A program made the translations under genes and the position numbers. DNA of 62,776 nt from Candidatus Iainarchaeum sp. (GTDB taxonomy: Archaea; Iainarchaeota; Iainarchaeia; Iainarchaeales; JAFCCW01), in contig JAFCCW010000005.1 of NCBI GenBank assembly GCA_017609985.1, forward strand, positions 1 to 62,776, given 5' to 3'. The notes beneath the pieces were generated by a model. The model was not told where the DNA came from and did no database searches. It saw nothing but the letters and a program-made list of their open reading frames with translations. Positions 3,583 through 62,776 of this stretch are shown here, piece by piece. Position 1 is the stretch's first letter. Every line of letters begins with the position of its first letter.

Positions 3583-4286
3583 AAGCAATTGTTAGAGCAG
3601 AGAACGTGTCCAAGGTCTTTGACATGGGAAAAGTGCAGGTTAAGGCACTGGACAACATAAATGTTGAAATTGATGAAGGAGAATTTGTTGCAATAATGGG
3701 CCCTTCCGGCTCAGGAAAGACAACCCTGCTTAATATGCTGAGCGCTTTGCTTAGGCCAAGCGCAGGAGAGGTTTTTGTTAACAACAAGCCGATTTCAAAA
3801 ATGGATGACGACGAGCTTGCGATTATAAGGGGAAAAACAATCGGTTTCATTTTTCAGACATTTAACCTTATTCCAAGAATGACTGCTTTAGAAAATGTGA
3901 TGTTGCCAATGTGGTTTGCTGGATTGTCAGTCAAACAAAGAGAAGAGCGAGCAAAAGAAGCTCTTGAAGATGTTGGATTAGGAGATAGGGTGGATCACAA
4001 ACCAAACGAGCTTTCAGGAGGACAAAGACAGCGCGTGGCAATAGCAAGAGCTTTGGGAAACAAGCCAGACATTATTGTTGCTGACGAGCCAACAGGAAAT
4101 CTAGACTCCAAGAGCGGAGAACAAATTCTTCAAATTATTGAAGAACTGAACAAAAATGGAAAAACTGTCCTCATGGTAACGCACGAGCGCGAGATTGGAT
4201 TAAGAGCGGAGAGGATTGTTCATATTAAAGACGGCAAAATAATTGAAAACGAAATAAGAAAGACAGGAAGGAGGTCTCCAAAATGA
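3579..4286 (+). CDS. ABC transporter ATP-binding protein (LolD/MacB type)
   Basis: Walker A GPSGSGKT, signature [20 protein letters not shown]. Confidence 0.95.
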
Positions 4287-5506
4287 AGAAATTATTAATT
4301 GCAATAGCTGCTATTGCTTTGCTGTTACCAGCAGCAATGGCGGAAAATCTTGCCGTGGAATCATTTAGTTATTCCCCGACACCGGCAGTCCCGGGAAAAT
4401 ACATAGACTTGTGGGTTCATTTGAAGAATGACTCACCATATGTGCTGAAAGGAGTTACGTTCGAGCTTGACTTAAAAGCAAGCTTTGAAGGCGGATCTGA
4501 TTTTCCTTTTGAACTGGAAGACGGCGACAGTCTGAAAAAAGAGCTTGGAACTCTTTCAGCAAAAAAGACAGCATTAATCCATTACAAGATAATGGTTAAT
4601 GAAAACGCTTTTGACGGCGACTACAGCATTGGCTTGATTTATTCGTCAGATGGAGCTACTTCAAAAAAGGAAACTGTTACAGTAAAGATTCAGAACAGAA
4701 ACCCTGACCTTGAAATCGTGGGAATTGAACCCTCTGAAATCGGACCAGGGCAGAGCAAGGAAATAGAACTCCAGATAAAAAATGTTGGAATGGAGCAAGC
4801 AACAAATGTTCTTGTAGGAGTAAGCGAGGACAGAACTGTGACAAGCACAGGAATTGTTGTTGAAAGAGATATTCTGCCAGTTGGCGGAGTACACTATATT
4901 GAATCCATTGCGCCAGGAGAAATTTACAAAGCAAAAATTTCAATTGGAGCAAATCCGGAAGCAGAGCTGAAAATTCACACTGTCCCAGTAACTCTTGAGT
5001 ATAAGGACGGAAACAGCAATAACCTGTCTGAAACCGAGTATATTGGAATAAAGGTTTCACAGAATGCAGAACTTGAATCAGTTATCAACAGCCAGACACC
5101 TCTTGCAGTTGCAGGAGGAACATCGGAACTGAAAATTGACTTGTTCAATGCAGGGATTGGCTCAGCAAAATACATAGTTGCAGAGCTTTCAAGTGATGCA
5201 GGCGAGTTTGAAAACAGCAAGGTGTTTATTGGAACACTTGAAGCTGATGACTTTGACTCGTTCAAGACAGACATAAAAATTGACAGCGGAATAGAACCAG
5301 GAATACATACTCTGAACCTAAAACTCAGCTACAAAAACCAGTTTGGAATGGCTGAAGAAATGGAAATTCCACTGGCTCTAAAAATTTATTCCCCAAGCGA
5401 AGCTGGAGGCGACGCAGGAATTGATTTTTGGTTCCTAGTAGTAGTTGCAATCGTGCTCTACTTTGTTGGAAAAAGAGTATACAAAAAATACATAAAAAAA
5501 CAGTGA
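4283..5506 (+). CDS. COG1361 S-layer-domain/Ig-like membrane-anchored protein
   Basis: Signal peptide, repeated Ig/CARDB-like segments, C-terminal TM helix; typical position in archaeal MacB-type operons. Confidence 0.8.
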   Translation: MKKLLIAIAAIALLLPAAMAENLAVESFSYSPTPAVPGKYIDLWVHLKNDSPYVLKGVTFELDLKASFEGGSDFPFELEDGDSLKKELGTLSAKKTALIHYKIMVNENAFDGDYSIGLIYSSDGATSKKETVTVKIQNRNPDLEIVGIEPSEIGPGQSKEIELQIKNVGMEQATNVLVGVSEDRTVTSTGIVVERDILPVGGVHYIESIAPGEIYKAKISIGANPEAELKIHTVPVTLEYKDGNSNNLSETEYIGIKVSQNAELESVINSQTPLAVAGGTSELKIDLFNAGIGSAKYIVAELSSDAGEFENSKVFIGTLEADDFDSFKTDIKIDSGIEPGIHTLNLKLSYKNQFGMAEEMEIPLALKIYSPSEAGGDAGIDFWFLVVVAIVLYFVGKRVYKKYIKKQ

Positions 5507-14464: not shown

Positions 14465-15337
14465 TTACTGAATCTCAAACTGCACGCTGACTGTGGCAGA
14501 AAATTCAATGTCTCCAGGAGTTATTGGGGTTGGCGCCTGACTCATGCCCGCTTCTGAAACAGAATCCATTGCATAAGATCTTGCGTAATACGGTGTTGAA
14601 TAGTTTGAGCTTTCACTCGCACTATACACTTGTCCAACCGCGACTCCGAGACCGGAAGAAATGCTGTTTGCTTTTTCACGAGCGTTTTCTGCAGCTTCCT
14701 TCAATGCAAGTGTTTTTAGATCTGATTGGGCCTGCTTTGTTAACGCAAAGCTTACACTGCCAACCCTGTTTACTCCAGCCTGAACTGAAGCATCAATTAC
14801 AGCCCCAACACTGTCAAGGTTTCTGACTGTTACCTTGATTGTGTTGGTTGTCCTGTAGCCAATTGACTCAGACTTTCGCAAGACATCATTCCACTGAAAA
14901 TCCTCTCTTACTGTGTAAGAACTTGTTTCAATGTCTTCTGAAGCAACTCCAGCAGACTCTAGCGCATCCATTACCTTGCTTGCGAGAACAGCATTGTCTG
15001 CTTGACTCTTGCTTGCGCTCTTGTCAAGAGTTTCAATGCTTAGGGTTATGTAAGCAAGCTCTGGACTGGCAGTTTTTGTCACAGTCCCTGAAACAGAAAT
15101 CAATCTGAGCCTGTCTTCTGACTCGTCTTCAGCAAAGCTTAGAATTCCATCCTCATAACTTGGAATAGAACCCTCGGTTACATTACTTGAAGACTTTTCA
15201 AGATAACCTGGCAGGTCCACAAGCACTTGTTCTTGTCCAGTAACATCCTGCCCTGCTGAAAATAAAACAAAGCCGGATAAAACAATCAATGCAGCAGCAA
15301 TGATTGACGCTGGTAAAATTAAATTATTTTTATCCAT
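14465..15337 (-). CDS. SIMPL (DUF541) domain protein
   Basis: ISVSG...PELAYI, AGVNRV..VSF, ITPGDIEFSATVSVQFEI. Confidence 0.9.
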   Translation of the reverse strand: MDKNNLILPASIIAAALIVLSGFVLFSAGQDVTGQEQVLVDLPGYLEKSSSNVTEGSIPSYEDGILSFAEDESEDRLRLISVSGTVTKTASPELAYITLSIETLDKSASKSQADNAVLASKVMDALESAGVASEDIETSSYTVREDFQWNDVLRKSESIGYRTTNTIKVTVRNLDSVGAVIDASVQAGVNRVGSVSFALTKQAQSDLKTLALKEAAENAREKANSISSGLGVAVGQVYSASESSNYSTPYYARSYAMDSVSEAGMSQAPTPITPGDIEFSATVSVQFEIQ

Positions 15338-15437
15338 AATATTCTCACCTCTTGAAAAAAGAAATGCAATAACTTTCTTAATAATTCTTCGTTTTTATTA
15401 GGAAAAAGCCTACAAAAATATCCTTTAACAAGACAAT

Positions 15438-15484
15438 TTTAAGCATTATCTCCCATACCAGCCTATAGGCAATGGTGAAGTTAT
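15438..15484 (+). repeat. Copy 1 of C/D sRNA promoter/5'-end module
   Basis: TTTAAGCATTATCTCCCATA-CCAGCC-TATAGGCAATGGTGAAGTTA; AAGC-to-GGC spacing 27 nt. Confidence 0.75.
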
Positions 15485-15672
15485 TGTCGGAGAAAGCGTA
15501 GGCAACGACACTAATTTTTGGAAAAATAAGGGAAATGGAAACTTGAAGTGAAATTATACGAACTAATTGCCAAAAGAAGGTAAAGCACATTAAGGTAATT
15601 AGGTGGCAAAATTGACACAAAAGGAGTCTGTCCGAGAATTGGGACAGCGTCCGAAAAGTCGGACAAGGCAAG

Positions 15673-15765
15673 TAGGCTGACAATCTTATTGCTTTTTGTT
15701 AGCCTAAAAGCCAAAAACAAGCAAAATTTTAGGCTAACTATTTAAAATAACTTTGTTAGCCTAAA
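15673..15765. promoter_or_regulatory. Four-half-site operator array upstream of Fic gene 1
   Basis: TAGGCTGAC(15673)/GTTAGCCTA(15698)/TAGGCTAAC(15730)/GTTAGCCTA(15755) flanking TTTAAAA. Confidence 0.7.
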
Positions 15766-15771
15766 TATTAT

Positions 15772-16710
15772 ATGCAATTACGTACAAAGAAAGTGCACGG
15801 GAAAAAGTACTATTACCTTGACCTTAGTTACAGGATTTTATCCAAATTAAAAACCTTCAGCAAATACATTGGAGCAAAAAAGCCTTCGAAAAGAGAACTC
15901 AACAGGATTGAAGAAGAATTCAAAGTAGAGACCATTATAAAACTTGCAGGAAAAGAATACACAAACGATCTAATTTCCCAGGATGATTTGATAAAAGCAC
16001 TTCTTTTCAAGGAAGCGTTTAACAAAAAATTTGCATCCCTTTCAAAAGTGCAAAAGAGAAAATATGAGGTTGACAGCACAATTCTTTTTACTCTAACAAC
16101 GCTCACAACAGAGGACGTTGACGTAAGCTTGGATGACGTAGTAAATGCGTTTGAAAAAGACCGACAGTTGAGCATGCGAGAGCAAATAAGTAAAAACATG
16201 CTTAAGGCAGTTGAATCAATAAAAGAAAAACACAAATTGAATAAGCAATACTTGCTGGAATTGCATAAAACGATAATGTCAAGCTTTGAGGATAAAACAC
16301 CAGGCCAGACAAGAAGCAGGCAGGTTTATCTTCATAGGCAAGACCCAAAAAACCCCTTAGGAATTGAAATCGGCTACAGGCCACCACAGCATGGCAAAAT
16401 AGATACGCTACTTGATGATTTCGTTGAATGGTACAATTCAACAAAACTAAACCCCGTAGAAAAGGCGGCGATTGCCCATTACAAAATATACAAAATCCAC
16501 CCTTTTCTTGACGGCAACAAAAGAATTTGCAGGCTGATATTCAACAAAACCCTGTTGGATGAAGGATTTCCCCTGCTTAACATTTCACTGAAGAAAGAGC
16601 CGTACTTCCAAACCTTGATTGATTCTGTTGAAAAAGACACGCCAAAGAAGCTTGCGGAATTTACGCTCAAAGAATTCCTAAGGCAAACAAAAGCATTCCT
16701 GAAACAATAA
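15772..16710 (+). CDS. Fic domain protein
   Basis: HPFLDGNKRICR motif; N-terminal KKVHGKKYYYL. Confidence 0.92.
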   Translation: MQLRTKKVHGKKYYYLDLSYRILSKLKTFSKYIGAKKPSKRELNRIEEEFKVETIIKLAGKEYTNDLISQDDLIKALLFKEAFNKKFASLSKVQKRKYEVDSTILFTLTTLTTEDVDVSLDDVVNAFEKDRQLSMREQISKNMLKAVESIKEKHKLNKQYLLELHKTIMSSFEDKTPGQTRSRQVYLHRQDPKNPLGIEIGYRPPQHGKIDTLLDDFVEWYNSTKLNPVEKAAIAHYKIYKIHPFLDGNKRICRLIFNKTLLDEGFPLLNISLKKEPYFQTLIDSVEKDTPKKLAEFTLKEFLRQTKAFLKQ

Positions 16711-16713
16711 ACA

Positions 16714-16762
16714 TTTAAGCAACCATCGCCATACGATACAATAGGCGATGATGAGGTGAAAA
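16714..16762 (+). repeat. Copy 2 of C/D sRNA promoter/5'-end module
   Basis: TTTAAGCAACCATCGCCATA-CGATAC-AATAGGCGATGATGAGGTGAA, starting just after the Fic stop; spacing 27 nt. Confidence 0.7.
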
Positions 16763-16856
16763 CTGGGTTTGTCGGATGATGATGACAAAGCAAAAATTCG
16801 TGGAACTCTAAACAAATGATTGGATTGTGGCTGAAGGAAAGAAAAAGGTAAAAATC

Positions 16857-17957
16857 ATGAAAAATGAATTAAACAAGTTTTTTATTGTATTAACCATTTT
16901 TGTTATAATTTCTTTTTGTTTATTGAATGGTTGTTTGCAAGAAGCTTCAAAAGAAAAACCATTAATCGAATCTGAAAACAGTTTGAATAAAGAGGTTCCA
17001 GCCAAAGATTTAACCAATGAAGCAAACCAGCAAAAAGAACCAGAAGAAATTAAAGAAGAAGACATTGATTGCACAGATTTCGATGGCAACAAAGAAGAAT
17101 GCTTATTGCACCAAGGCTGTAAATGGAGTTCGGATAGAAACGAATGCGATTCAACCAGCCTAATGAAAGACGAGGATGAACAATTTGAAGAAGATGAAGA
17201 AGGGTTCATGCAAGAGTTAGAAGAGATTATTGTTCCCCAAAACCCATCCAATGAAATATGCAAAAAACTACCCTTGTTAAAGTCCTTAAGTTATGGCAAC
17301 AGGTATTACTGCCTGGCCATAGTAAACCACAATGCCGAATTTTGCAGGGGAATGGACGAAGAAAACGAGGAGAATATTTGTTTAGCAATAGTTAAGAAAG
17401 ACTCATCACACTGCAAAAAAATAAAGGATGTTTCTGCAAAACATGTTTGCTATTACCAACTTGCAGCAATAAGCAAAAACATTAATTTTTGTGACGACAT
17501 TGATTATGATGAAAATGAAAGATTACAGTGCTACTTCAATTTTGTAAGCAATTTATACTGGTTTGACAAATCTGAAGAAATAAAAACAGAATACTGCAAT
17601 AAGTTTCCTGCTGGCGAGTCTGACAAAAGCACTTGTTTAGCCTTCAAAGAAAGAAATGCTTCACTCTGCAAAAACAATGTTAATTGTTTAACTTTTTTTG
17701 AACAAGAAGCACCATTCTGTGAAAACAAAAGAATTATATTAAAAGATTGTGTAAGAGATAGAGCTATGACCAGCAAAGATGTTTCAATTTGTGAAAAACT
17801 CTCTGGAAAAAAAAGAGATGATTGCATTGGTGATTTTTGCACTCATATAGAGTTAGATGTTGCTATTTGTGATAAGATTACAAGCATTAAAGAAAAACAA
17901 TCTCGTTATATAGAACTTGCCATAAACCTTGCTAACAATGTGAGGGAGAGTAACTAA
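16857..17957 (+). CDS. Cys-rich repeat lipoprotein
   Basis: LNGC lipobox-like motif and repeated C...A......C..I units, like 10471-11853. Confidence 0.75.
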   Translation: MKNELNKFFIVLTIFVIISFCLLNGCLQEASKEKPLIESENSLNKEVPAKDLTNEANQQKEPEEIKEEDIDCTDFDGNKEECLLHQGCKWSSDRNECDSTSLMKDEDEQFEEDEEGFMQELEEIIVPQNPSNEICKKLPLLKSLSYGNRYYCLAIVNHNAEFCRGMDEENEENICLAIVKKDSSHCKKIKDVSAKHVCYYQLAAISKNINFCDDIDYDENERLQCYFNFVSNLYWFDKSEEIKTEYCNKFPAGESDKSTCLAFKERNASLCKNNVNCLTFFEQEAPFCENKRIILKDCVRDRAMTSKDVSICEKLSGKKRDDCIGDFCTHIELDVAICDKITSIKEKQSRYIELAINLANNVRESN

Positions 17958-17958
17958 A

Positions 17959-19851
17959 ATGAAAAAAACAATTAGTATCTTAGTTTTAATTTGTTTGATT
18001 GGAATTGTTTTTGCAGAAAACAAATTTTCAACAGAAACCACGCCTCAATTAACTGCAGAGGAAAAAAAAGATGCTCCAGACTTATATGCGGGAGATGTCT
18101 ATCCTGCATGGGGAGTTCCCTGCACAAATTTCACTTATTATGTTACATATAAAGACAAGGAGGGTAGAGCTCCAGAATACGTTAGGATAAATTTGAACGG
18201 AGAATGGCACGACATGGTAAAAAGCAAAGGCGATTACAAAACCGGAGCAACATACACCTATAACATTGTTCCAGATTCTGGTAAAGCACTTTTTTATTAT
18301 TATGAAGCCAGCAACGGAAAAGGAAAAGCAAGAACATCCATAATAGATACTCCTGATTTAGGACCACTGCTTTTATCAGAAAAATTCAACAACAACCAAA
18401 TAATTTTGCTGGACAAGCAAGGAAACCTTGTCTGGAATTATGATATTGGAAGGGATTGGGTTGAAGCAGTGGCAATTTCGCAAGACGGGAACTACATTGC
18501 TGTTGCAACACAAATTTATTTTCACCTCTTTTCAAAAGACAGCAACAAGCCCATATGGTCGTTCTGCAAAAAATGCAAACTGCCGCCAGTGGTTAATGAT
18601 GCTTCAAGAGGAATTGCAATTTCGGCAGATGGAAAATATGTTGCAGGAAGTTTTGACAAACTTTATTTTTTTGAAAGAGACAGTAACACACCTGTTTGGA
18701 TTGCGGATATAGGAGCAGCAGCTGTTGGAATTGACATGTCGGATGATGCTAGTGTGATTGCAGCAGGAACAGGCAACAGCGAAAATAACCGCGGACAAAA
18801 GATTTTATTATTTGACAGAGAAGGAAACAAATTAGGAGAATACAAGCCAAAGCATGAAGGTTATAGCCAAACCGGGGATTTTTACCAACCAGATGTTACT
18901 CCTAACGGCAAATACGTGGCAATTTCCACTGGCTGTCCCGATAGAAGAGCTTATTTGTTTTCAGGAAACGGGCAATTATTATTCAGAAGCAAACAATTAA
19001 CCGAAGATTCACCAGCACACAAGTCAGCAATTTCTGATGATGGCAAATTGATTGCGTACTCATTAGACCACTCAGTAGGAAAAGAAATACTGTTCTTATT
19101 TGACAACAAAGGAAACAAATTATGGAGTTTTTCTTCTCCAACTGACAGTACTGCAAGAGCTGTTTCCATATCCGGCAACGGAAACTATATTGCAATTGGC
19201 ACAACCACGGGCAACATTTACTTTTTTTCAAAAGACAGCAGCGAACCAAAATGGAGCTTTACTGATTATGGCTTCTTTTCCTGTTTTGGAGACATAAAAC
19301 TAAACCAAGATGGAAGCTTATTAGCAGCAGGCGGCACAACAAAAAAAATTTACCTTTTCTCAAAAAACAGCAACAAGCCACTGTGGGAATACAATACAAA
19401 CACTTGGGTAAACAAAATAGATTTCAGCGGTGAATACATTGTAGCAGGAACAGGCCCAAGAGAATACTTTGGCGAAGGAAGCAGCTTAACTGAAGACAAG
19501 ATTGAATGTAAAGAAATAATCCAGCCTCCTCCAATGGAAGAAACTCTTGGAAAATGCGGTGATGGAATATGCATAGAACCACAAGAAAACAAGGAAAACT
19601 GCCCACAAGACTGCACTCCTGCAATAAAACAAGAAGATAACAAAAAAGAATTTGATAACAGTGCTAAAGCTGTTTGCGGAGACGGAATTTGCGAACCCCC
19701 TGAAACCAAAGACTTCTGCTGTGAAGACTGTGGAAACTGCTACGAGGACAAGGAAATAAAAATTGAAAAAAACATTGCAGAAGAAAAAAGTTTTTTTGAA
19801 AAAATACTGGATTTCCTTTTCGCCTTGTTTGACATCTCAGCTAATAACTAA
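17959..19851 (+). CDS. Secreted WD40/PQQ-like beta-propeller protein with Cys-rich C-terminus
   Basis: Signal peptide, repeated VAISxDGxYIA/LW blades, CGDGIC.P.E..C repeats. Confidence 0.85.
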   Translation: MKKTISILVLICLIGIVFAENKFSTETTPQLTAEEKKDAPDLYAGDVYPAWGVPCTNFTYYVTYKDKEGRAPEYVRINLNGEWHDMVKSKGDYKTGATYTYNIVPDSGKALFYYYEASNGKGKARTSIIDTPDLGPLLLSEKFNNNQIILLDKQGNLVWNYDIGRDWVEAVAISQDGNYIAVATQIYFHLFSKDSNKPIWSFCKKCKLPPVVNDASRGIAISADGKYVAGSFDKLYFFERDSNTPVWIADIGAAAVGIDMSDDASVIAAGTGNSENNRGQKILLFDREGNKLGEYKPKHEGYSQTGDFYQPDVTPNGKYVAISTGCPDRRAYLFSGNGQLLFRSKQLTEDSPAHKSAISDDGKLIAYSLDHSVGKEILFLFDNKGNKLWSFSSPTDSTARAVSISGNGNYIAIGTTTGNIYFFSKDSSEPKWSFTDYGFFSCFGDIKLNQDGSLLAAGGTTKKIYLFSKNSNKPLWEYNTNTWVNKIDFSGEYIVAGTGPREYFGEGSSLTEDKIECKEIIQPPPMEETLGKCGDGICIEPQENKENCPQDCTPAIKQEDNKKEFDNSAKAVCGDGICEPPETKDFCCEDCGNCYEDKEIKIEKNIAEEKSFFEKILDFLFALFDISANN

Positions 19852-19876
19852 AAAAAGCAATAAAGAAACAGAAAAT

Positions 19877-20022
19877 ATGTCAAGCAGAGAGAAGGAGTAA
19901 CAACTATTCAACTTGAAAAGAAAACAAGAGACAGGTTGATAGATTTGGAAAAGAATGGCGAAAGCTATGATAAAATAATTAATAACCTGGTTGATTTTTG
20001 GAAGAAGAGAAAAAAGAGATAG
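19877..20022 (+). pseudogene. Small RHH/antitoxin-like DNA-binding gene with frameshift
   Basis: VTTIQLEKKTRDRLIDLEKNGESYDKIINNLV is out of frame with ATG 19877 by one extra GA in AGAGAGAA. Confidence 0.6.
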
Positions 20023-20111
20023 TTATCACTGGTTCTATGCACAATGTTGTTTTTTGTGATAACAACGAGTTATCACTGAGTTAAGTTTAAATACTGTTTT
20101 CAGTGATAACT
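20022..20111. promoter_or_regulatory. Four-half-site operator array upstream of Fic gene 2
   Basis: GTTATCAC(20022)/GTGATAAC(20056)/GTTATCAC(20069)/GTGATAAC(20103); a 12-bp perfect inverted repeat flanks TTTAAATA. Confidence 0.75.
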
Positions 20112-20115
20112 AAGT

Positions 20116-21129
20116 ATGAGTCGTATTATCTCTAGAACTGTAAAAGGCAAGAAATACTACTATTTAGAAGAGTCTTTCAAGCAGCGCCAAAAATGGGTTA
20201 AGGAAAGCGTTTACTTGGGGTCCGAAAAACCAGACAACACTCGGTTGTTGCCTGCTTTTGAAGAGTTAAAGAAAAAATGCAAGAAAAAAGAGCATGTTGT
20301 TCTTGTTCCGCCGCTAACAGAATTTATCTCAAACCAGAGAGCAGCCAAGCTGCAAAAAGCTGCAGAAAACAAGAAAGAATTTCTAAAAAAACTTACCAAA
20401 TCCCAAAGAGAGGAGTTTGTAAGAAGAGAGCGGATAACATTCATAACAGACTCCAATGCAATAGAGGGGAGCTCGCTCACATACTCTGAAACATCAAGAA
20501 TCTTAGAACAAGAAAAACAAATCAAGAAATATGAAAAAAGAAACATTATAATCACTGGCCTTGACAGAGAAGAACAAGAAGCATTAAACCTCAAAGCATG
20601 CCTTGACAGATACGATAAATACATGAAAATAAACCAAAAAATATCGCAAAAAATGATTCTGCAGCTGCATTACATTCTACTGGAAAAAATATCCGGCTAC
20701 GAACAATACCAAGGAATTTACCGGCCAGTTAAGGTTTACATTAGGGGGTCAACCCACGAGTTTCCACTACCACAAGAAGTACCTGGACTAATGAAAAAAC
20801 TAATTCAATGGCTGGCAGATAACGAGAAACTCATGCACCCTGTAGAGTTGGCTGCAAAATTCCACACAAAATTCACAGGAATCCACCCGTTCGCTGATGG
20901 AAATGGAAGAATGGCAAGGCTCCTAATGAATTACATCCTGCAACAAAAAGAATTCCCATTCACAAACATCCCACTAAAAAGAAGGCAAGCATACATGAGA
21001 ACACAGGCAGCAGGAAACAAAGAAAACTACAAACCATTCACCCAATTCCTCTCAGAAGAGCTAATAAAACAGCATTTAGGCGAACACAAGAAACCAAGCG
21101 AGCGCAGGTGGCCACAAACCACAAAATAG
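20116..21129 (+). CDS. Fic domain protein
   Basis: HPFADGNGRMAR, SNAIEG; N-terminal RTVKGKKYYYL. Confidence 0.93.
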   Translation: MSRIISRTVKGKKYYYLEESFKQRQKWVKESVYLGSEKPDNTRLLPAFEELKKKCKKKEHVVLVPPLTEFISNQRAAKLQKAAENKKEFLKKLTKSQREEFVRRERITFITDSNAIEGSSLTYSETSRILEQEKQIKKYEKRNIIITGLDREEQEALNLKACLDRYDKYMKINQKISQKMILQLHYILLEKISGYEQYQGIYRPVKVYIRGSTHEFPLPQEVPGLMKKLIQWLADNEKLMHPVELAAKFHTKFTGIHPFADGNGRMARLLMNYILQQKEFPFTNIPLKRRQAYMRTQAAGNKENYKPFTQFLSEELIKQHLGEHKKPSERRWPQTTK

Positions 21130-21154
21130 GGTCACCCAGTAACAAAACAACCAA

Positions 21155-21221
21155 TTAAAGCATTATCTCCTATACATTTCTGTGGGCAATGATGAGGTTA
21201 ACACCTACCGAGCGCGCCACT
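21155..21221 (+). repeat. Copy 3: promoter plus 5' half of the C/D sRNA
   Basis: GGCAATGATGAG followed by 25 bp identical to the sRNA (GTTAACACCTACCGAGCGCGCCACT, 21197-21221 = 21899-21923). Confidence 0.9.
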
Positions 21222-21290
21222 ATTTTAATATTATTGGCGGCAAACAGTTGATGCAAAGAAATTTATTATAGTTCCAAACTAATTATCTAA

Positions 21291-21512
21291 ATGAACAAAA
21301 CACAATTTTTCGGAGTCCTGCTTGTAATCATTGGGCTGGTTCTGCTGACAGTTTTTCCGATTTTTGGAATCGTTGCAGGAGAATGGCTTGTTAAATACTC
21401 TGTTGTCGGAGGCTGGGCTATTGCAATTGTGGGAGCAGGAATTCTAATTGTTTCATTAGTAATTGAAAGATTGGAAGACATCAAGAAAGAAAAATTCAAC
21501 AAAAATTTTTGA
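21291..21512 (+). CDS. Small two-TM membrane protein
   Basis: Two hydrophobic helices; upstream of YbjQ. Confidence 0.7.
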   Translation: MNKTQFFGVLLVIIGLVLLTVFPIFGIVAGEWLVKYSVVGGWAIAIVGAGILIVSLVIERLEDIKKEKFNKNF

Positions 21513-21521
21513 GGTGAAAAA

Positions 21522-21836
21522 ATGATTATTGTAAACACAGACTTTATTCAGGGAAAACAGATAACTGAAACACTTGGGATAGCAAAAGGAAACACTATAA
21601 GAGCAAAATGGTTTGGAAAAGACATCGTGGCAGGATTAAGACAGGTTGTCGGCGGAGAGCTAAAAGAATACACTGAAATGCTGACAGAAGCAAGAAAAGA
21701 ATCCATGCAGAGAATGGTTGAAGAAGCAGAAGCAATGCGCGCAGATGCAATAGTCAATGTAAGGTTTACAACATCGCAGGTAATGGCTTCAGCAGCAGAA
21801 ATACTTGTTTATGGAACTGCAGTAAAGTTGAAGTGA
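21522..21836 (+). CDS. YbjQ/UPF0145 heavy-metal-binding-like protein
   Basis: DIVAGLRQVVGGELKEYTEML..AR, ADAIVNVRF, YGTAV. Confidence 0.92.
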   Translation: MIIVNTDFIQGKQITETLGIAKGNTIRAKWFGKDIVAGLRQVVGGELKEYTEMLTEARKESMQRMVEEAEAMRADAIVNVRFTTSQVMASAAEILVYGTAVKLK

Positions 21837-21886
21837 AAAACAGGAAAGGCAAGAATATTAAGCATTACCTCTAATAAAATTTATTA

Positions 21887-21955
21887 GGCAATGACGAAGT
21901 TAACACCTACCGAGCGCGCCACTCGTGCTGTGACGAAACAACTCAACACCGAGCC
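21887..21955 (+). ncRNA. Box C/D methylation-guide sRNA
   Basis: GGC/GCC terminal stem, C box ATGACGA, 12-nt guide, D' CCGA, GC hairpin, C' GTGACGA, 12-nt guide, D CCGA; TTAAG ~28 nt upstream. Confidence 0.8.
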
Positions 21956-22066
21956 AAATATTTATGTTCTGCTGAAAGCGGAACGATGTATGCAGCATTG
22001 CCTGATGCAACAGGCGCTCAACACCGCGCCTATTAGTTTTTAAAAAAAACAACAGGCTAGCCAAGA

Positions 22067-22576
22067 TTGGAGAATAATAAAATGAAACCTACTAATAAAA
22101 CAAGAAGAAGGAAACTCCGCAGGGAGCCTGATAAAGTGCATATTGCCAAAGGCTGGTGGCAGGGGCATTCCATATTCCTCAGCCCCGCGCTGTTAATCAG
22201 AAAGGGCAGGTCAGAGATTCGTGGCATAAAGTCAAGAGTTGATTTTCCTGGAAATTATGGGAGAAAATTTAAAAGAGGCGAGAAAGTGCTTCAGCTATAT
22301 CTTAATTCAACAAACCCAAGGGAAACAATTGAACTCATGAAAAAGTTTGAAGAAAGCAGGGAAGAACTGAGGAAAGCAGGATATGCAGGATTTTTTGCAG
22401 ACACCCCAAACCAGGTTGTTGCAAACGCTCTTGAAAGAAGAGGGATGGAAAAAGTGAGAACACACTGGGGCATAAGAGCAGTTAACAAGTATTTGTATGC
22501 AAACGATATAGTGCTCTCAGGATTTCCAGCAAGGCATATTTTGGGAAGAATGAGACGCCTTGTTTCAAAACTTTGA
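22067..22576 (+). CDS. Hypothetical basic protein
   Basis: 169-aa Arg/Lys-rich ORF with no recognised motif. Confidence 0.55.
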   Translation: MENNKMKPTNKTRRRKLRREPDKVHIAKGWWQGHSIFLSPALLIRKGRSEIRGIKSRVDFPGNYGRKFKRGEKVLQLYLNSTNPRETIELMKKFEESREELRKAGYAGFFADTPNQVVANALERRGMEKVRTHWGIRAVNKYLYANDIVLSGFPARHILGRMRRLVSKL

Positions 22577-23659
22577 ACCTGAAAGAAACTTTTTTTCAGA
22601 GAACTTTCCTTCAATTATTGATTCCCTTATTTCATTCATCAGATTGTGAACAAAAAACAGGTTGTGGAGAGAAAGCCACTTGCGTGCATTCTCTTCCTTT
22701 GTTCGGAACAAGTGGTGGAGATAAGCGCGGGAATGAGTAGCACAAACAGGGCAATCGCATTTGCTATCAAGCGGCTTTAAGTCAAATCTGTAACGCGCAG
22801 CATCAATGTTAATGTTTCCCTTACTTGAAAAAGCCCGGCCATGCCTTGCTGTTCGCGTTGGAAACGCAGAGTCAAAACAGTCAACTCCAAGAGAAACAGC
22901 TTTCACTAGCTCGCGGATTGAACCAACACCCATTAGATAGCGCGGCTTGTTTTCGGGAAGCAGAGGAATAGTATGCTCTACTGTCTTAATCATCTTGGAG
23001 AGAGATTCTCCAATCGCAAGCCCGCCAATTGCATAACCGTCAAAGTCAAGGGAAGCAATCTGGTTAGTGCTTTTAGTGCGAAGCTTTTTGTCTGTTCCGC
23101 CTTGAGAGATTCCAAAGAGAAGCTGTTTCTTGTTCTTGTGAACTTTTTTGCAGCGCTCTGCCCACTGAAAGGTGCGCTCTGAAGATTCACGAAGGCGATT
23201 GAGAGAAGAACCTGCAGTCGGAACATCATCAAGGCACATTGCAACATCGCTTGAAAGCGTGTTCTGGATTTTGATAGATTGCTCTGGAGAAAAAATAGAT
23301 TTTGTTCCAGTGAATGGATTGCGAAAGAGAACACCGTCTTCCTCAAGCTTGAGACAAAAGTCTGGACTCAAAACCTGGAATCCGCCAGAGTCAGTAAACA
23401 GACTTTTTTTCCAGGACATGAACTTGTGTAAGCCGCCTGCTTTTTTGATTACTTCAAGACCAGGCTTCATTGAAAGAATGAAAGCATTCGAGATAATACA
23501 TTGGGTTCCTGCAGAAAAAACTTCTTCGTGAGAGAGAAGCTTGACGCTTCCCTTTGTTGCAACAGGCATGAAGAAAGGCGTTTGGATTTTTGAGTGAGCT
23601 GTTTCTAAAATTCCAGCCCTGGCTTTTCCAGATTTTGCCTGAATTTTAAAGGATTTCAT
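22565..23659 (-). CDS. tgt: tRNA-guanine transglycosylase, bacterial/queuine type
   Basis: TPFFMPVAT, TDSGGFQ, QGG, GGLAIGE, PRYLMGVG, CDCPVC...H zinc site; no PUA extension. Confidence 0.92.
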   Translation of the reverse strand: MKSFKIQAKSGKARAGILETAHSKIQTPFFMPVATKGSVKLLSHEEVFSAGTQCIISNAFILSMKPGLEVIKKAGGLHKFMSWKKSLFTDSGGFQVLSPDFCLKLEEDGVLFRNPFTGTKSIFSPEQSIKIQNTLSSDVAMCLDDVPTAGSSLNRLRESSERTFQWAERCKKVHKNKKQLLFGISQGGTDKKLRTKSTNQIASLDFDGYAIGGLAIGESLSKMIKTVEHTIPLLPENKPRYLMGVGSIRELVKAVSLGVDCFDSAFPTRTARHGRAFSSKGNINIDAARYRFDLKPLDSKCDCPVCATHSRAYLHHLFRTKEENARKWLSLHNLFFVHNLMNEIRESIIEGKFSEKKFLSGSKF

Positions 23660-58989: not shown

Positions 58990-59027
58990 ACAAGCATAAA
59001 AAGAGAAATTGATTTAAAAGACTTGAA

Positions 59028-59100
59028 TAGCCCGGGGGTGATTCGAACACCCGTCACAGGGTTCAAAGCCCTGCATACTTGGCCACTATACTACCGGGCT
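59028..59100 (-). tRNA. tRNA-Gln(TTG)
   Basis: AGCCCGG...CAGGG-CTTTGAA-CCCTG...GTTCGAATC...CCGGGCTA; A1-U72 pair typical of archaeal tRNA-Gln. Confidence 0.93.
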
Positions 59101-59234
59101 ATTAATAAAATCTTATAACCAAATCTTTATTATTCTGCCCCTGCAAGGCTATTCTTCGTAAGGCAATAAATTACGAAAAAATCATCAGAAACGGTTTAAA
59201 AACTTTTAGTTATGCAATCTTTATTACTTATTTT

Positions 59235-59309
59235 GGGCGCGTGGCTTAGCCTGGTTAGAGCACACGACTGATAATCGTGGGGTCGGCGGTTCAAATCCGC
59301 CCGTGCCCA
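59235..59309 (+). tRNA. tRNA-Ile(GAT)
   Basis: GGGCGCG...CACGA-CTGATAA-TCGTG...GGTTCAAATCC...CGTGCCCA. Confidence 0.94.
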
Positions 59310-60112
59310 TTTTTCTTTTTTAAAAAACCAGATAAAAAACGTTCAAATAATTTAACTTCAGCTATTGCTTTGTGCATCTTTTCCCTTCTAAAAATAAGAA
59401 CATAGAGGCATCCAAAAACTGCGCCATAGCCGTGAATCCAGAAATCAGTTTTTGTTTCAATCTCAAAATTTCTTGAAACTGCAAATTCCTGTTCTTGTTT
59501 CTGAATTTTATGAATTTTTTCTTCAGCAAGCTTTGCATTGTTCAAGTTTCCTTCAGCCAAAGCAGCAGACTGCTCCTGCAAAGCAACAGACATAGAAGAA
59601 TCGATTGATGCACCTGCTGTTTCAACTCCTTGAAATGAGACAGGAGCAATAACCAAAGAAGCCGCAGCAAGAGACAAGACAATTCCCCAGATTGCTTTTT
59701 TTGGATCCAGAAAAAAAGAAGCCCCAAGCAATCCGCTTACTCCAGCACTTGCTCCAATCAATGCAGTATTGGGATTGATTACAGTGAATGCAACAGCAGT
59801 TAAAACACCAGAAACAACAAATATCGCGATTGTGTCTGCAAATCCAAGAACTGATTCAACAACAATTGCAAAAGCTGCTCCTGACACAATGTTTACTGCC
59901 AAATGAGAAAAACCAGTGTGAACAAGCAAGTAAGAAAAAATATTGTGAATTCTTTCAACAGAAAAAGAGAATGCTAATAAAACCTCTTGTTTAATGTACA
60001 CGCTGAAATTAGACAAAAAAGCATATGCTCCGGACAAAACAAGAGCGATTAAAGCCGCTCCTGCAAATTTAAGTCCTTTTAAAGAAAGCTCCATTGAAAT
60101 AAAAATATTCAA
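59291..60112 (-). CDS. Rhomboid family intramembrane serine protease
   Basis: H....HL..N, IGASAG, HGYGAVFG. Confidence 0.82.
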   Translation of the reverse strand: MNIFISMELSLKGLKFAGAALIALVLSGAYAFLSNFSVYIKQEVLLAFSFSVERIHNIFSYLLVHTGFSHLAVNIVSGAAFAIVVESVLGFADTIAIFVVSGVLTAVAFTVINPNTALIGASAGVSGLLGASFFLDPKKAIWGIVLSLAAASLVIAPVSFQGVETAGASIDSSMSVALQEQSAALAEGNLNNAKLAEEKIHKIQKQEQEFAVSRNFEIETKTDFWIHGYGAVFGCLYVLIFRREKMHKAIAEVKLFERFLSGFLKKKNGHGRI

Positions 60113-61920: not shown

Positions 61921-62776
61921 GTGAAACACATGAGAAAGAAACTGCACGACTATGAAAGGATTCTAGAGCGCGAATTCGAGCTATTGAAAGAGACTCCTAT
62001 CTCCAAGGAAAACAAGGAGAAAATAAAGAAATACAACTTCTGGAGCATTTCCCGCGAACTCAGCGACGCAAGAGTGATCCGAAATTCCAACACGCTGAGA
62101 AAGATAGCAAAGATTTTGAAGAAAGACTTTGAAGAAGCCACAGAAGAAGACATGCAAAAACTATTGATACGCATCAAAAAACAAGGCTATGCAGAGGCAA
62201 CAATTGACGGCGACAAAGCAGTCCTCAAGCACTTCTATAAATGGCTGAACGGCGGAGAAAAATACCCTGACTGCGTGAAATGGATAAAACGCAAAGGACT
62301 GAAAAACAACAAGCTGCCGGACGAAATGCTGGAACCCGAAGAAGTCCAGAAAATAATCAAAGCAGCAAACAACAAAAGAGACAAAGCAATAGTTTCGCTC
62401 GTCTGGGAGTCCGGTGCACATATCGGGGAAATAGGCGGAATGCAAGTAAAAAACGTTGCCTTTGACAAAACAGGCTGCAGGGTAATGCTGGATGGAAAAA
62501 CAGGAATGCGAAGAATAATGCTGATAAACTCAGCGCCCTACCTGGTTCAATGGATGAACGAACACCCAAAATCGGAAGACCCACAGGAACCGCTCTGGAT
62601 AACCCTGAAAAACCCGAAGAAAAAACAGCTCAGCTACAGATATTTCACGAAGATGCTCAAAGCCACTGCAAAAAGAGCAGGAATAAAAAAGCCAGCCAAC
62701 CCCCCCACTTCAGGCACTCAAGAGCAACCTGCCTCGCAAACAAGCTCACAGAAGCCCAAATGAAAGAATACTTCGG
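61921..62776 (+). pseudogene. Tyrosine recombinase/integrase, degenerate and cut by the window end
   Basis: RDKA...WESGAHIGE, DGKTG.R; H.FRHSRAT...LTEAQMKEYFG continues in another frame after the C-tract at ~62700. Confidence 0.8.

Follow-up and report, generated by a model that had tools for sequence, protein, structure and literature searches.

What would place four copies of one short, promoter-like module on the same strand, the last of them at the head of a small RNA gene and the others set apart by accessory genes? The question is raised by positions 15,438 to 21,955 of contig JAFCCW010000005.1 from Candidatus Iainarchaeum sp.; the whole stretch of 62,776 bp that was analysed is referred to as the window. 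We call the copies M1 to M4, with M4 belonging to a complete box C/D guide RNA (sRNA) gene. Our answer, which we regard as probable, is tandem site-specific integration into the sRNA 5' end, each element donating a new promoter. An earlier note on this DNA had proposed the core of this idea, namely integrations in the sRNA 5' half that leave the old promoter and 5' end upstream, and it is now supported by the shuffled cargo of relatives, by breakpoints in the shared core and by a linked integrase. The computational observations behind it are the repeats, the real sRNA, the shuffled cargo, the core breakpoints, the excess identity of cassettes and the adjacency of integrase and module.

The repeated module and its guide RNA gene

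The array and its chromosomal flanks contain the following features.

14465..15337, - strand: SIMPL-family gene, the upstream chromosomal flank (Pfam PF04402, E 7.9e-49)
15432..15489, + strand: module M1, with TATA-like TTTTAAG, spacer and core GGCAATGGTGAAGT, +1 = 15468 (pattern; nhmmer E 3.7e-13)
15480..16760, + strand: cassette A, made up of a leader, operator-like TTAGCCTAA repeats, Fic1 and the M2 promoter and core (84-85% identity to relatives)
15772-16710, + strand: Fic1 (PF02661, E 1.1e-20)
16708..16765, + strand: module M2, core GGCGATGATGAGGT, +1 = 16744 (pattern, profile)
16857-17957, + strand: cassette B cargo, Cys-rich secreted or lipoprotein-like open reading frame (ORF; ORF call)
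17959-19851, + strand: cassette B cargo, beta-propeller protein (several beta-propeller families match, PQQ_2 above cut-off)
19881..21198, + strand: Fic2 unit, made up of a broken RHH-like ORF, Fic2, the M3 promoter and the core to +14 (94.4% identity to G162:C136)
20116-21129, + strand: Fic2 (ORF call; Fic Pfam match)
21149..21221, + strand: module M3, with promoter, C box ATGATGA, D' guide, D' box CCGA and 8 more sRNA-like bases, +1 = 21185
21291..21836, + strand: cassette C cargo, 73-aa membrane protein and YbjQ (YbjQ_1, E 6.7e-37)
21851..21886, + strand: promoter part of M4, TATA-like ATTAAG at 21857 (pattern, profile)
21887-21955, + strand: complete box C/D sRNA (boxes by eye; orthologues in G026, G013, G011 and G027)
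21891-97, 21898-909 and 21910-13, + strand: sRNA C box ATGACGA, D' guide and D' box CCGA
21930-36, 21937-48 and 21949-52, + strand: sRNA C' box GTGACGA, D guide and D box CCGA, the RNA being closed by a GGC/GCC terminal stem
22565..23659, - strand: tgt, tRNA-guanine transglycosylase family, the downstream chromosomal flank (PF01702, E 1.2e-136)

A pattern scan of the 62,776-bp window that allowed up to two mismatches returned four sites, all on the + strand and all with 0 mismatches, at 15441, 16717, 21158 and 21860. From shuffled sequences 0.03 matches were expected, and none of 100 shuffles reached four. The module consists of a TATA-like box, a 24-nt spacer and then GGCRATGRYGARGT; in each window copy TT(T/A)AAG stands about 30 nt 5' of a GGC that is followed by a C-box-like RATGRYGA, and the distance from AAGC to GGC is 27 nt in four of four. 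The stop codons of Fic1, Fic2 and YbjQ (16710, 21129 and 21836) fall 4, 26 and 21 nt before the TT(T/A)AAG of M2, M3 and M4, respectively. M3 and M4 are alike over 25 bases (21197-21221 = 21899-21923) and diverge afterwards, while M1 and M2 have about 14-16 nt in common with the sRNA. All long ORFs between the modules lie on the + strand, and Pfam and the ORF list identify them as two Fic proteins (PF02661), a Cys-rich secreted ORF, a beta-propeller, the 73-aa membrane protein and YbjQ. The TATA-like boxes are putative active promoters.

Most of what the earlier note had read from the letters therefore stands: four modules (at 15438, 16714, 21155 and 21857), a constant 27-nt AAGC-GGC spacing, 25 bp of sRNA kept in the nearest copy and little beyond the C box in the distal ones, three copies shortly after stop codons, and accessory genes of a single orientation in between. 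Its imperfect palindrome is present in M4 and, as CATCGCC..GGCGATG, in M2, but by eye it is not conserved across the family. Its count of four copies holds for the interval, outside of which three more full copies (two on contig C30, one on C25) and one partial copy (C28) were found.

M4 is a genuine guide RNA gene. By eye it is the one window module with all four boxes, and its two guides are 12 nt each with a 16-nt spacer between D' and C'. Orthologues in G026, G013, G011 (two complete copies) and G027, which represent other families of the order, have boxes of the canonical form (ATGATGA, CTGA) and guides that hardly differ, and a TATA-like box stands at equal distance in five sRNA orthologues. 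In G027 tgt is a neighbour of the sRNA as well. The D' guide matches the 23S rRNA of the source genome (G000) with 11 of 12 bases at position 2592; for the D guide there was no 23S target at up to two mismatches, 16S and tRNAs not having been searched. Fibrillarin (PF01269, 265.9 bits) and Nop5 (PF01798, 219.3 bits) are encoded by neighbouring genes on contig C13 of G000. An Rfam gathering search of the whole window gave four tRNAs only and no family over the sRNA, and E-value searches of 15300-22200, C28 and C30 gave just three chance-level matches (E 0.27-0.63) and nothing else. The upstream copies are incomplete. By eye, neither M1 nor M2 has a D box and closing stem at sRNA distance (no CTGA or CCGA followed by GCC), and in M3 we found C, one guide and D', with C' and D box not found. 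Only the last copy is thus a full C/D sRNA, as the earlier note had said. A reading of ATGATGAGG.. as a leaderless peptide was rejected: by eye its frames stop after 3 to about 50 codons, differently in each copy, and the orthologues are plainly RNAs.

The window sRNA also shows a paired change of AUGACGA with CCGA (in both D and D') where the orthologues have AUGAUGA with CUGA, and the same change is seen in one G102 copy (L050 around 11924). It seems that two lineages have exchanged U.U for C.C in the kink-turn.

The module is specific. The source genome, assembled to 1.16 Mb in 37 contigs (86.6% complete, 3% contamination), contains seven full modules scoring 41-54 bits in a profile search: four in the window, two on the 4.7-kb contig C30 and one on C25. 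The next score is 19 bits, the partial copy on C28, which lacks a promoter and lies exactly at the stop codon of a bud32-like gene; everything after it scores 7 bits or less. This gap rules out a generic promoter, which the earlier note had named as a way for its idea to fail. The note had also suggested scanning the relatives. R1, a sequence-only model built from ten modules, matches 80 of 151 sampled genomes of the order with up to 14 matches per genome, many of them in co-oriented runs on one contig, and at least 13 among 150 listed matches lie within 360 nt of contig position 1. Of 15 stretches with the exact pattern, six are labelled 'Candidatus Iainarchaeum archaeon', five are other uncultured archaea and four are bacteria-labelled metagenome-assembled genomes (MAGs). 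In the latter the 21-nt core pattern is exact (L069, L074, L076 and L079; two Chloroflexi, Lachnospiraceae and Falkowbacteria); such matches might be due to chance or to archaeal contigs binned with the wrong genome.

Aligning 92 modules showed that the TATA box and spacer are moderately conserved, that conservation is near-maximal from +1 to about +19 (GGCAATGATGAGGTTAAC) and that it is gone past about +22. Among 102 distinct modules 24 are full sRNAs, and in 52 of the other 78 sRNA similarity ends between +14 and +22. Most of the collected modules have the upstream stop codon 19-60 nt ahead of +1, and in most of them the next start codon is found 80-150 nt past it. In 25 detailed loci we counted 49 pairs of neighbouring modules that have the same orientation and lie within 9 kb of each other, with 97 ORFs between them on the same strand and 31 on the opposite one, some of the 31 probably being shadows produced by the simple longest-ORF script. 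Since the fetched loci were picked for arrays or integrases, the strand counts and the 102-module tally describe a biased sample.

Cassettes in relatives of the source organism

The relatives, whose synteny the earlier note had proposed to compare, retain partial synteny around the sRNA (SIMPL .. sRNA .. RNase HII), with cargo, copy number and cassette order that vary. The clearest case is a pair of genomes of one genus, G041 and G121. Both loci end in sRNA - F16 - F11 - RNase HII, with flanks 68% identical, and the SIMPL family (F22) also flanks the G041 array. The cassette order is Z-Y-X-sRNA in G041 and X-Y-Z-sRNA in G121. Between the two genomes cassette X (two small ORFs) is 98.7% identical over 1,291 nt, cassette Y (a small ORF and a TBP paralogue) 89% and cassette Z (one small ORF) 84%. 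The homology blocks begin at +1 of a module; the X block stops at +22 of the module that comes next and the Z block at +14. Blocks that run from +1 to +14..+22 of the next module mean that the promoter moves with the upstream cassette, and the sRNA therefore has the promoter of whichever cassette adjoins it. The TBP paralogue in this mobile cassette (PF00352, best E 3e-51) lies at 6820-7386 of L044 and 6097-6663 of L051 (G041 and G121).

The cassettes of the window itself have close copies in other families, in the genomes G018, G067 and G162. The Fic2 unit (19881-21198) is 94.4% identical over 1,319 nt to G162:C136, the right end of the match being +13 or +14, and in that genome a module and an integrase gene come next. 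The Fic1 unit (15480-16760) has copies in G018:C11 (84% identity over 1,289 nt) and G067:C55 (85% over 1,239 nt), and a 59-nt stretch at M2 is 93% identical in G162:C187. The 14 kb of DNA flanking the array matches G162, G018 and G067 at just 64-76%, in short pieces. Cassette identity so far above that of the flanks (98.7% against 68%; 94% against 64-76%) requires transfer between cells and not just internal recombination. The membrane protein and YbjQ pair of cassette C is 75-79% identical in many genomes, often beside modules. We infer, from these comparisons, that the window's own cassettes were probably moved by integration at the core.

Three sequencing runs contained 6-7% of the sampled words; they represent fragments of relatives and not the source organism, and they give no coverage evidence on excision. 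The joints listed for them were disregarded because of short sides or low likeness. In run X1, a contig of 3,834 nt aligns to 20014-21206 at about 96% identity (42 differing letters, 5 gaps) and stops 12 nt beyond the aligned part. Of the contigs in this run, one has Fic2 and M3 to +22 and then ends, and another has the Fic1 3' end and M2 to +14 and then diverges.

The DNA that follows the core was examined as well. Behind M1 lies a leader (15481-15605; also L063 about 2560-2687, - strand) of the form GTTATTGTC - GGAAAAAGCGTA - GGCAATGAC - ACTAATTT. Over 15 sequences the pairing of its 9-bp stem amounts to 79%, and four pairs have changed on both sides. The leader accompanies Fic1 in three genomes; on C28 and in G041 its companions are two other genes. 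The idea that the sequence after M1 is a decayed sRNA is thus not borne out; it is a conserved leader that moves with Fic. Post-core classes recur across several families, and the post-core of the integrase module is itself conserved and rich in CTATAG repeats.

The cargo genes are, by eye, preceded by TATA-like boxes of their own, about 30 nt 5' of the start codon. Beside such a box, Fic1 has short inverted motifs TTAGCCTAA / TTAGGCTAA (15690-15771) and Fic2 has GTTATCACTG / CAGTGATAAC (20020-20115); these look like operators and are candidates for autoregulation. A third Fic gene is found on C30, with a module no more than 21 nt 3' of it, and in the collected loci five of six Fic genes of the family have a module 34-63 nt past the stop codon. 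At 851-4700 of C30 (L064) genes for a DUF4143 ATPase and an HNH protein come first, then a module, RHH-like and RelE-like ORFs, Fic and another module, and the contig ends 165 nt on. C30 may represent either a second array or the window array as it occurs in another strain.

The linked integrase and the origin of the array

G025 and G110 encode a 430-aa protein whose start lies about 81-85 nt past a module and which has a Phage_integrase domain (68.9 bits, cut-off 27.1). It is only distantly XerA-like, and its C-terminus has a weak zinc-ribbon match (PF12773, 17.7 bits, below the 27.3-bit cut-off). Using this protein as a query against the order, we examined the 30 top-ranking loci. Eleven loci have at least 39% identity: seven of them have a module 81-142 nt upstream, two are cut by the contig start and two lack it, so that seven of nine testable clade loci are positive. 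Below 39% identity a module was present in 0 of 19. Metagenome contigs yielded 35 integrase loci with a module at 8 of 11 testable clade members and in 0 of 15 loci at 31% identity or less. An integrase clade linked to the module elsewhere, as the earlier note had suggested looking for, was thus found in relatives, and the adjacency suggests that this integrase catalyses the reaction at the core. By eye, a variant core GCCGATGA(T/A)GA stands before two of the remaining three metagenome clade members; as GCCGATGA(T/A)GA..CTGA it precedes clade members of 40-42% identity in L157 (about 130-260) and L159 (about 4230-4364). Distant clade members may have other C/D sRNAs as their targets.

Whole elements of 10-13 kb can be read in relatives. 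G115:C72 holds, over 12.8 kb, promoter - core - integrase - about 11 kb of cargo - promoter - core - complete sRNA, the cargo comprising large helicase- or restriction-like ORFs and a MazF-like ORF as named by eye from sequence. G025:C27 has the same build, and a related 10.5-kb element in G022 ends at a non-sRNA module. By eye the ends of these elements (G115:C72, G025 and G022) have only 14-16 identical bases in common, a shared core that suits site-specific over homologous recombination.

According to the mechanism that we propose, three integrase-less cassettes would have entered the 5' end of the guide RNA gene one after another. The recombination site would be the first 14-20 nt of the sRNA, GGCRATGATGAGGT(TAAC), which comprise the terminal stem and C box. 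A circular element, presumed to carry its own promoter, the core and element-specific sequence, would on integration yield old promoter - core - element ... element promoter - core - rest of sRNA. With the old promoter and core left upstream, transcription of the still intact guide RNA would pass to the incoming promoter. Repeats of this event, loss of the integrase and recombination between any two cores would then produce co-oriented arrays from which cassettes can be lost, exchanged or reordered. One amendment is that modules other than the sRNA copy serve as sites (G022, C28). As cassettes can be reordered, distance from the sRNA gives no clean age order, and as the window array lacks an integrase, its cassettes are either relics or mobilised in trans. 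A bolder version, which we hold tentatively, is that the guide RNA gene acts as an integron-like capture platform: cassettes ending in a promoter and C-box site would be shuffled in trans by the recombinase of sibling elements, insertions would re-promote the sRNA and left-over promoters would fire into the cassettes.

Several observations weigh against tandem integration. Pfam and clade searches found no integrase in or beside the window array; the best clade matches in G000, at 33-37% identity, lie at contig ends with no module nearby, and G121 (81% complete), which has shuffled cassettes, gave no integrase match at E<=1e-10. Pattern and integrase searches of viral contigs returned 0 matches. 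No terminal overlap of 20-200 nt was present in the metagenome loci that are whole contigs (31 of 35), and no excised circle was found. At the left end of the Fic2 unit (19881) neither G000 nor G162 has a module, so not every boundary fits the model. In G011 the membrane protein and YbjQ pair is directly upstream of the sRNA with no module before it and, given how widespread this pair is at 75-79% identity, M3 could be a local duplication. Some post-cores are conserved and may fold, so some modules may be small-RNA genes. Finally, all genomes are MAGs, which makes repeat-induced misassembly possible.

The absence of an integrase from the window array and from the shuffled arrays of G041 and G121 would also be expected if there were no dedicated system at all: paralogous sRNA 5' ends would allow homologous or microhomology recombination to duplicate, delete and reorder genes, and integrase elements would merely use one copy as an att site. 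The arrangement on C28 (bud32 | core | leader-F26-F25), which resembles a core join of arrangements that are separate in G041, looks like such a chromosomal rearrangement joined in the core, and the end points of sRNA similarity are spread from +14 to +27 rather than fixed at one position. We nevertheless consider this explanation unlikely, as the identity that copies have in common is only 14-22 nt, promoter and C box are intact in nearly all of them, and cassettes exceed their flanks (98.7% against 68%; 94% against 64-76%) to a degree that needs transfer between cells.

Each module might instead start an independent small RNA or mRNA leader, making up a C-box RNA family for which recombination is incidental. 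There would be room for an RNA of about 100 nt between stops that are mostly 19-60 nt before +1 and starts 80-150 nt after it; TATA box, spacing and C box are strongly conserved, the same post-core classes occur in several families, and the M1-type post-core has its 9-bp stem with 79% pairing and four two-sided changes. Such an RNA family would leave integrase adjacency, module-bounded elements, reordering and excess identity unexplained, however, and M2 and M3 are by eye without D box or closing stem, the cargo genes have TATA-like boxes of their own about 30 nt upstream (by eye), and no Rfam family matches. We therefore judge it very unlikely. Chimeric joins at repeats during metagenome assembly or binning would account for the many modules at contig ends and would suit a data set made up of MAGs, including a source genome in 37 contigs with 3% contamination. 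Against such an artefact, the window copies differ in promoter and post-core, their identical stretches are too short to mislead the usual k-mers, and dozens of independent assemblies show this architecture too, among them genomes in a single contig like G016; we give the artefact hardly any credence.

Tandem integration at the sRNA 5' end hence remains our preferred reading of the array. G000 has three PF00589 matches, all away from it. A different tyrosine recombinase, cut by the contig end, lies at 62167-62700 (+ strand) of the window, about 3 kb from tRNA-Gln and tRNA-Ile (59027-59310) and with no module near; it probably belongs to a conventional tRNA-linked element.

Cargo, implications and comparison with known systems

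A Pfam scan of 90 co-oriented ORFs between modules matched 96 families in all. The most frequent ones, out of 90 ORFs, are listed below.

AAA_14 with DUF4143: 5/90
Fic: 5/90
ABC_tran: 3/90
Thioredoxin_3: 3/90
AbiEii: 2/90
ArsP with ArsR: 2/90
TBP: 2/90
YbjQ: 2/90
Glycosyltransferases: 2/90

The cargo is a mixed accessory set in which a selfish or defence component is clear.

If tandem integration is true, a C/D guide RNA gene as integration hot spot would be a new target class for archaeal integrases. It would explain how small DPANN genomes stock and exchange accessory genes such as Fic, toxin-antitoxin pairs, AbiEii, DUF4143 ATPases and transporters, and it would provide a short, defined att core (about 14-20 nt) with a matching integrase clade, both amenable to bench tests. 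A further question would be whether the left-over stubs of promoter and C box titrate L7Ae or Nop5, or act as half-guides. Moreover, modules break metagenome assemblies, and the accessory genome of these archaea is probably under-binned.

The targets of archaeal tyrosine recombinases, in the part of a 2021 review drawn on here, are tRNA genes, some protein-coding genes and intergenic sites (PMC8371274); the terms 'sRNA', 'non-coding RNA' and 'DPANN' are absent from that review. The nearest relatives in kind are the pTN3-like integrases of Thermococcales, which according to the same part of the review use the 5' half of a tRNA gene and re-promote the tRNA. Alike are the tyrosine recombinase, an attB that is the 5' part of a stable-RNA gene, a restored gene on an element-borne promoter and tandem integration at one locus, which the section cited reports for archaeal elements (PMC8371274). 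In contrast, the target here is a box C/D sRNA and not a tRNA, the identical core is about 14-20 nt, the host belongs to DPANN (Iainarchaeota), and the cassettes are integrase-less, 0.7-5 kb long and in co-oriented arrays, each with a promoter and C box. The likeness is one of features.

Integrons resemble the array in other respects: in the sections of a study of archaeal-MAG integrons used here, co-oriented accessory cassettes lie between a short repeated site, their order varies among relatives, arrays are often without a nearby integrase, as in clusters of attC sites lacking integron integrases (CALINs), and a tyrosine recombinase is implicated (PMC9668308). The main text of that study contains neither 'Iainarchae' nor 'Diapherotrites'. 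Unlike attC, the window repeat is no hairpin with a GTTRRRY core; its conserved part is TATA plus GGCRATGATGAGGTTAAC, and the spacer has no conserved palindrome by eye. Here, too, each repeat has a TATA-like promoter, the cargo has promoters of its own, and the integrase is on larger elements. The array ends in an RNA gene and has no intI/attI/Pc head, its upstream flank being the opposite-strand SIMPL gene.

The tandem islands at tRNA and tmRNA genes and at the dusA 5' end, as outlined in the passages of PMC4482086 relied on here, likewise have direct repeats of part of the target, a reconstituted target and reuse of the site that leads to tandem arrays. In the window M1-M4 repeat in direct orientation and the array closes on its right with the full sRNA; G115:C72 and G025:C27 show this arrangement together with an integrase. 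What differs is the class of target, the promoter in every repeat and the very small cassettes. Box C/D sRNA genes are themselves known to multiply. In the portion cited here, Lui et al. 2018 describe sRNA duplications in Pyrobaculum and an sRNA element like a miniature inverted-repeat transposable element (MITE), with no integration (PMC6009581). Proliferating C/D sRNA copies and a modular rearrangement of their parts are common to both; the elements described there are short, have terminal inverted repeats and carry no cargo (PMC6009581), whereas the window copies are direct repeats of promoter and 5' end that bound 0.7-4.4 kb of coding DNA and are linked to an integrase.

A full-text literature search found no published description of C/D sRNA genes together with an integrase, nor, among the titles listed, relevant work on DPANN integrase attachment sites, in line with the earlier note's remark that it knew of no such report. 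Overall, tyrosine-integrase elements are known, and what would be new is the proposed guide-RNA target class and the integron-like organisation of its cassettes.

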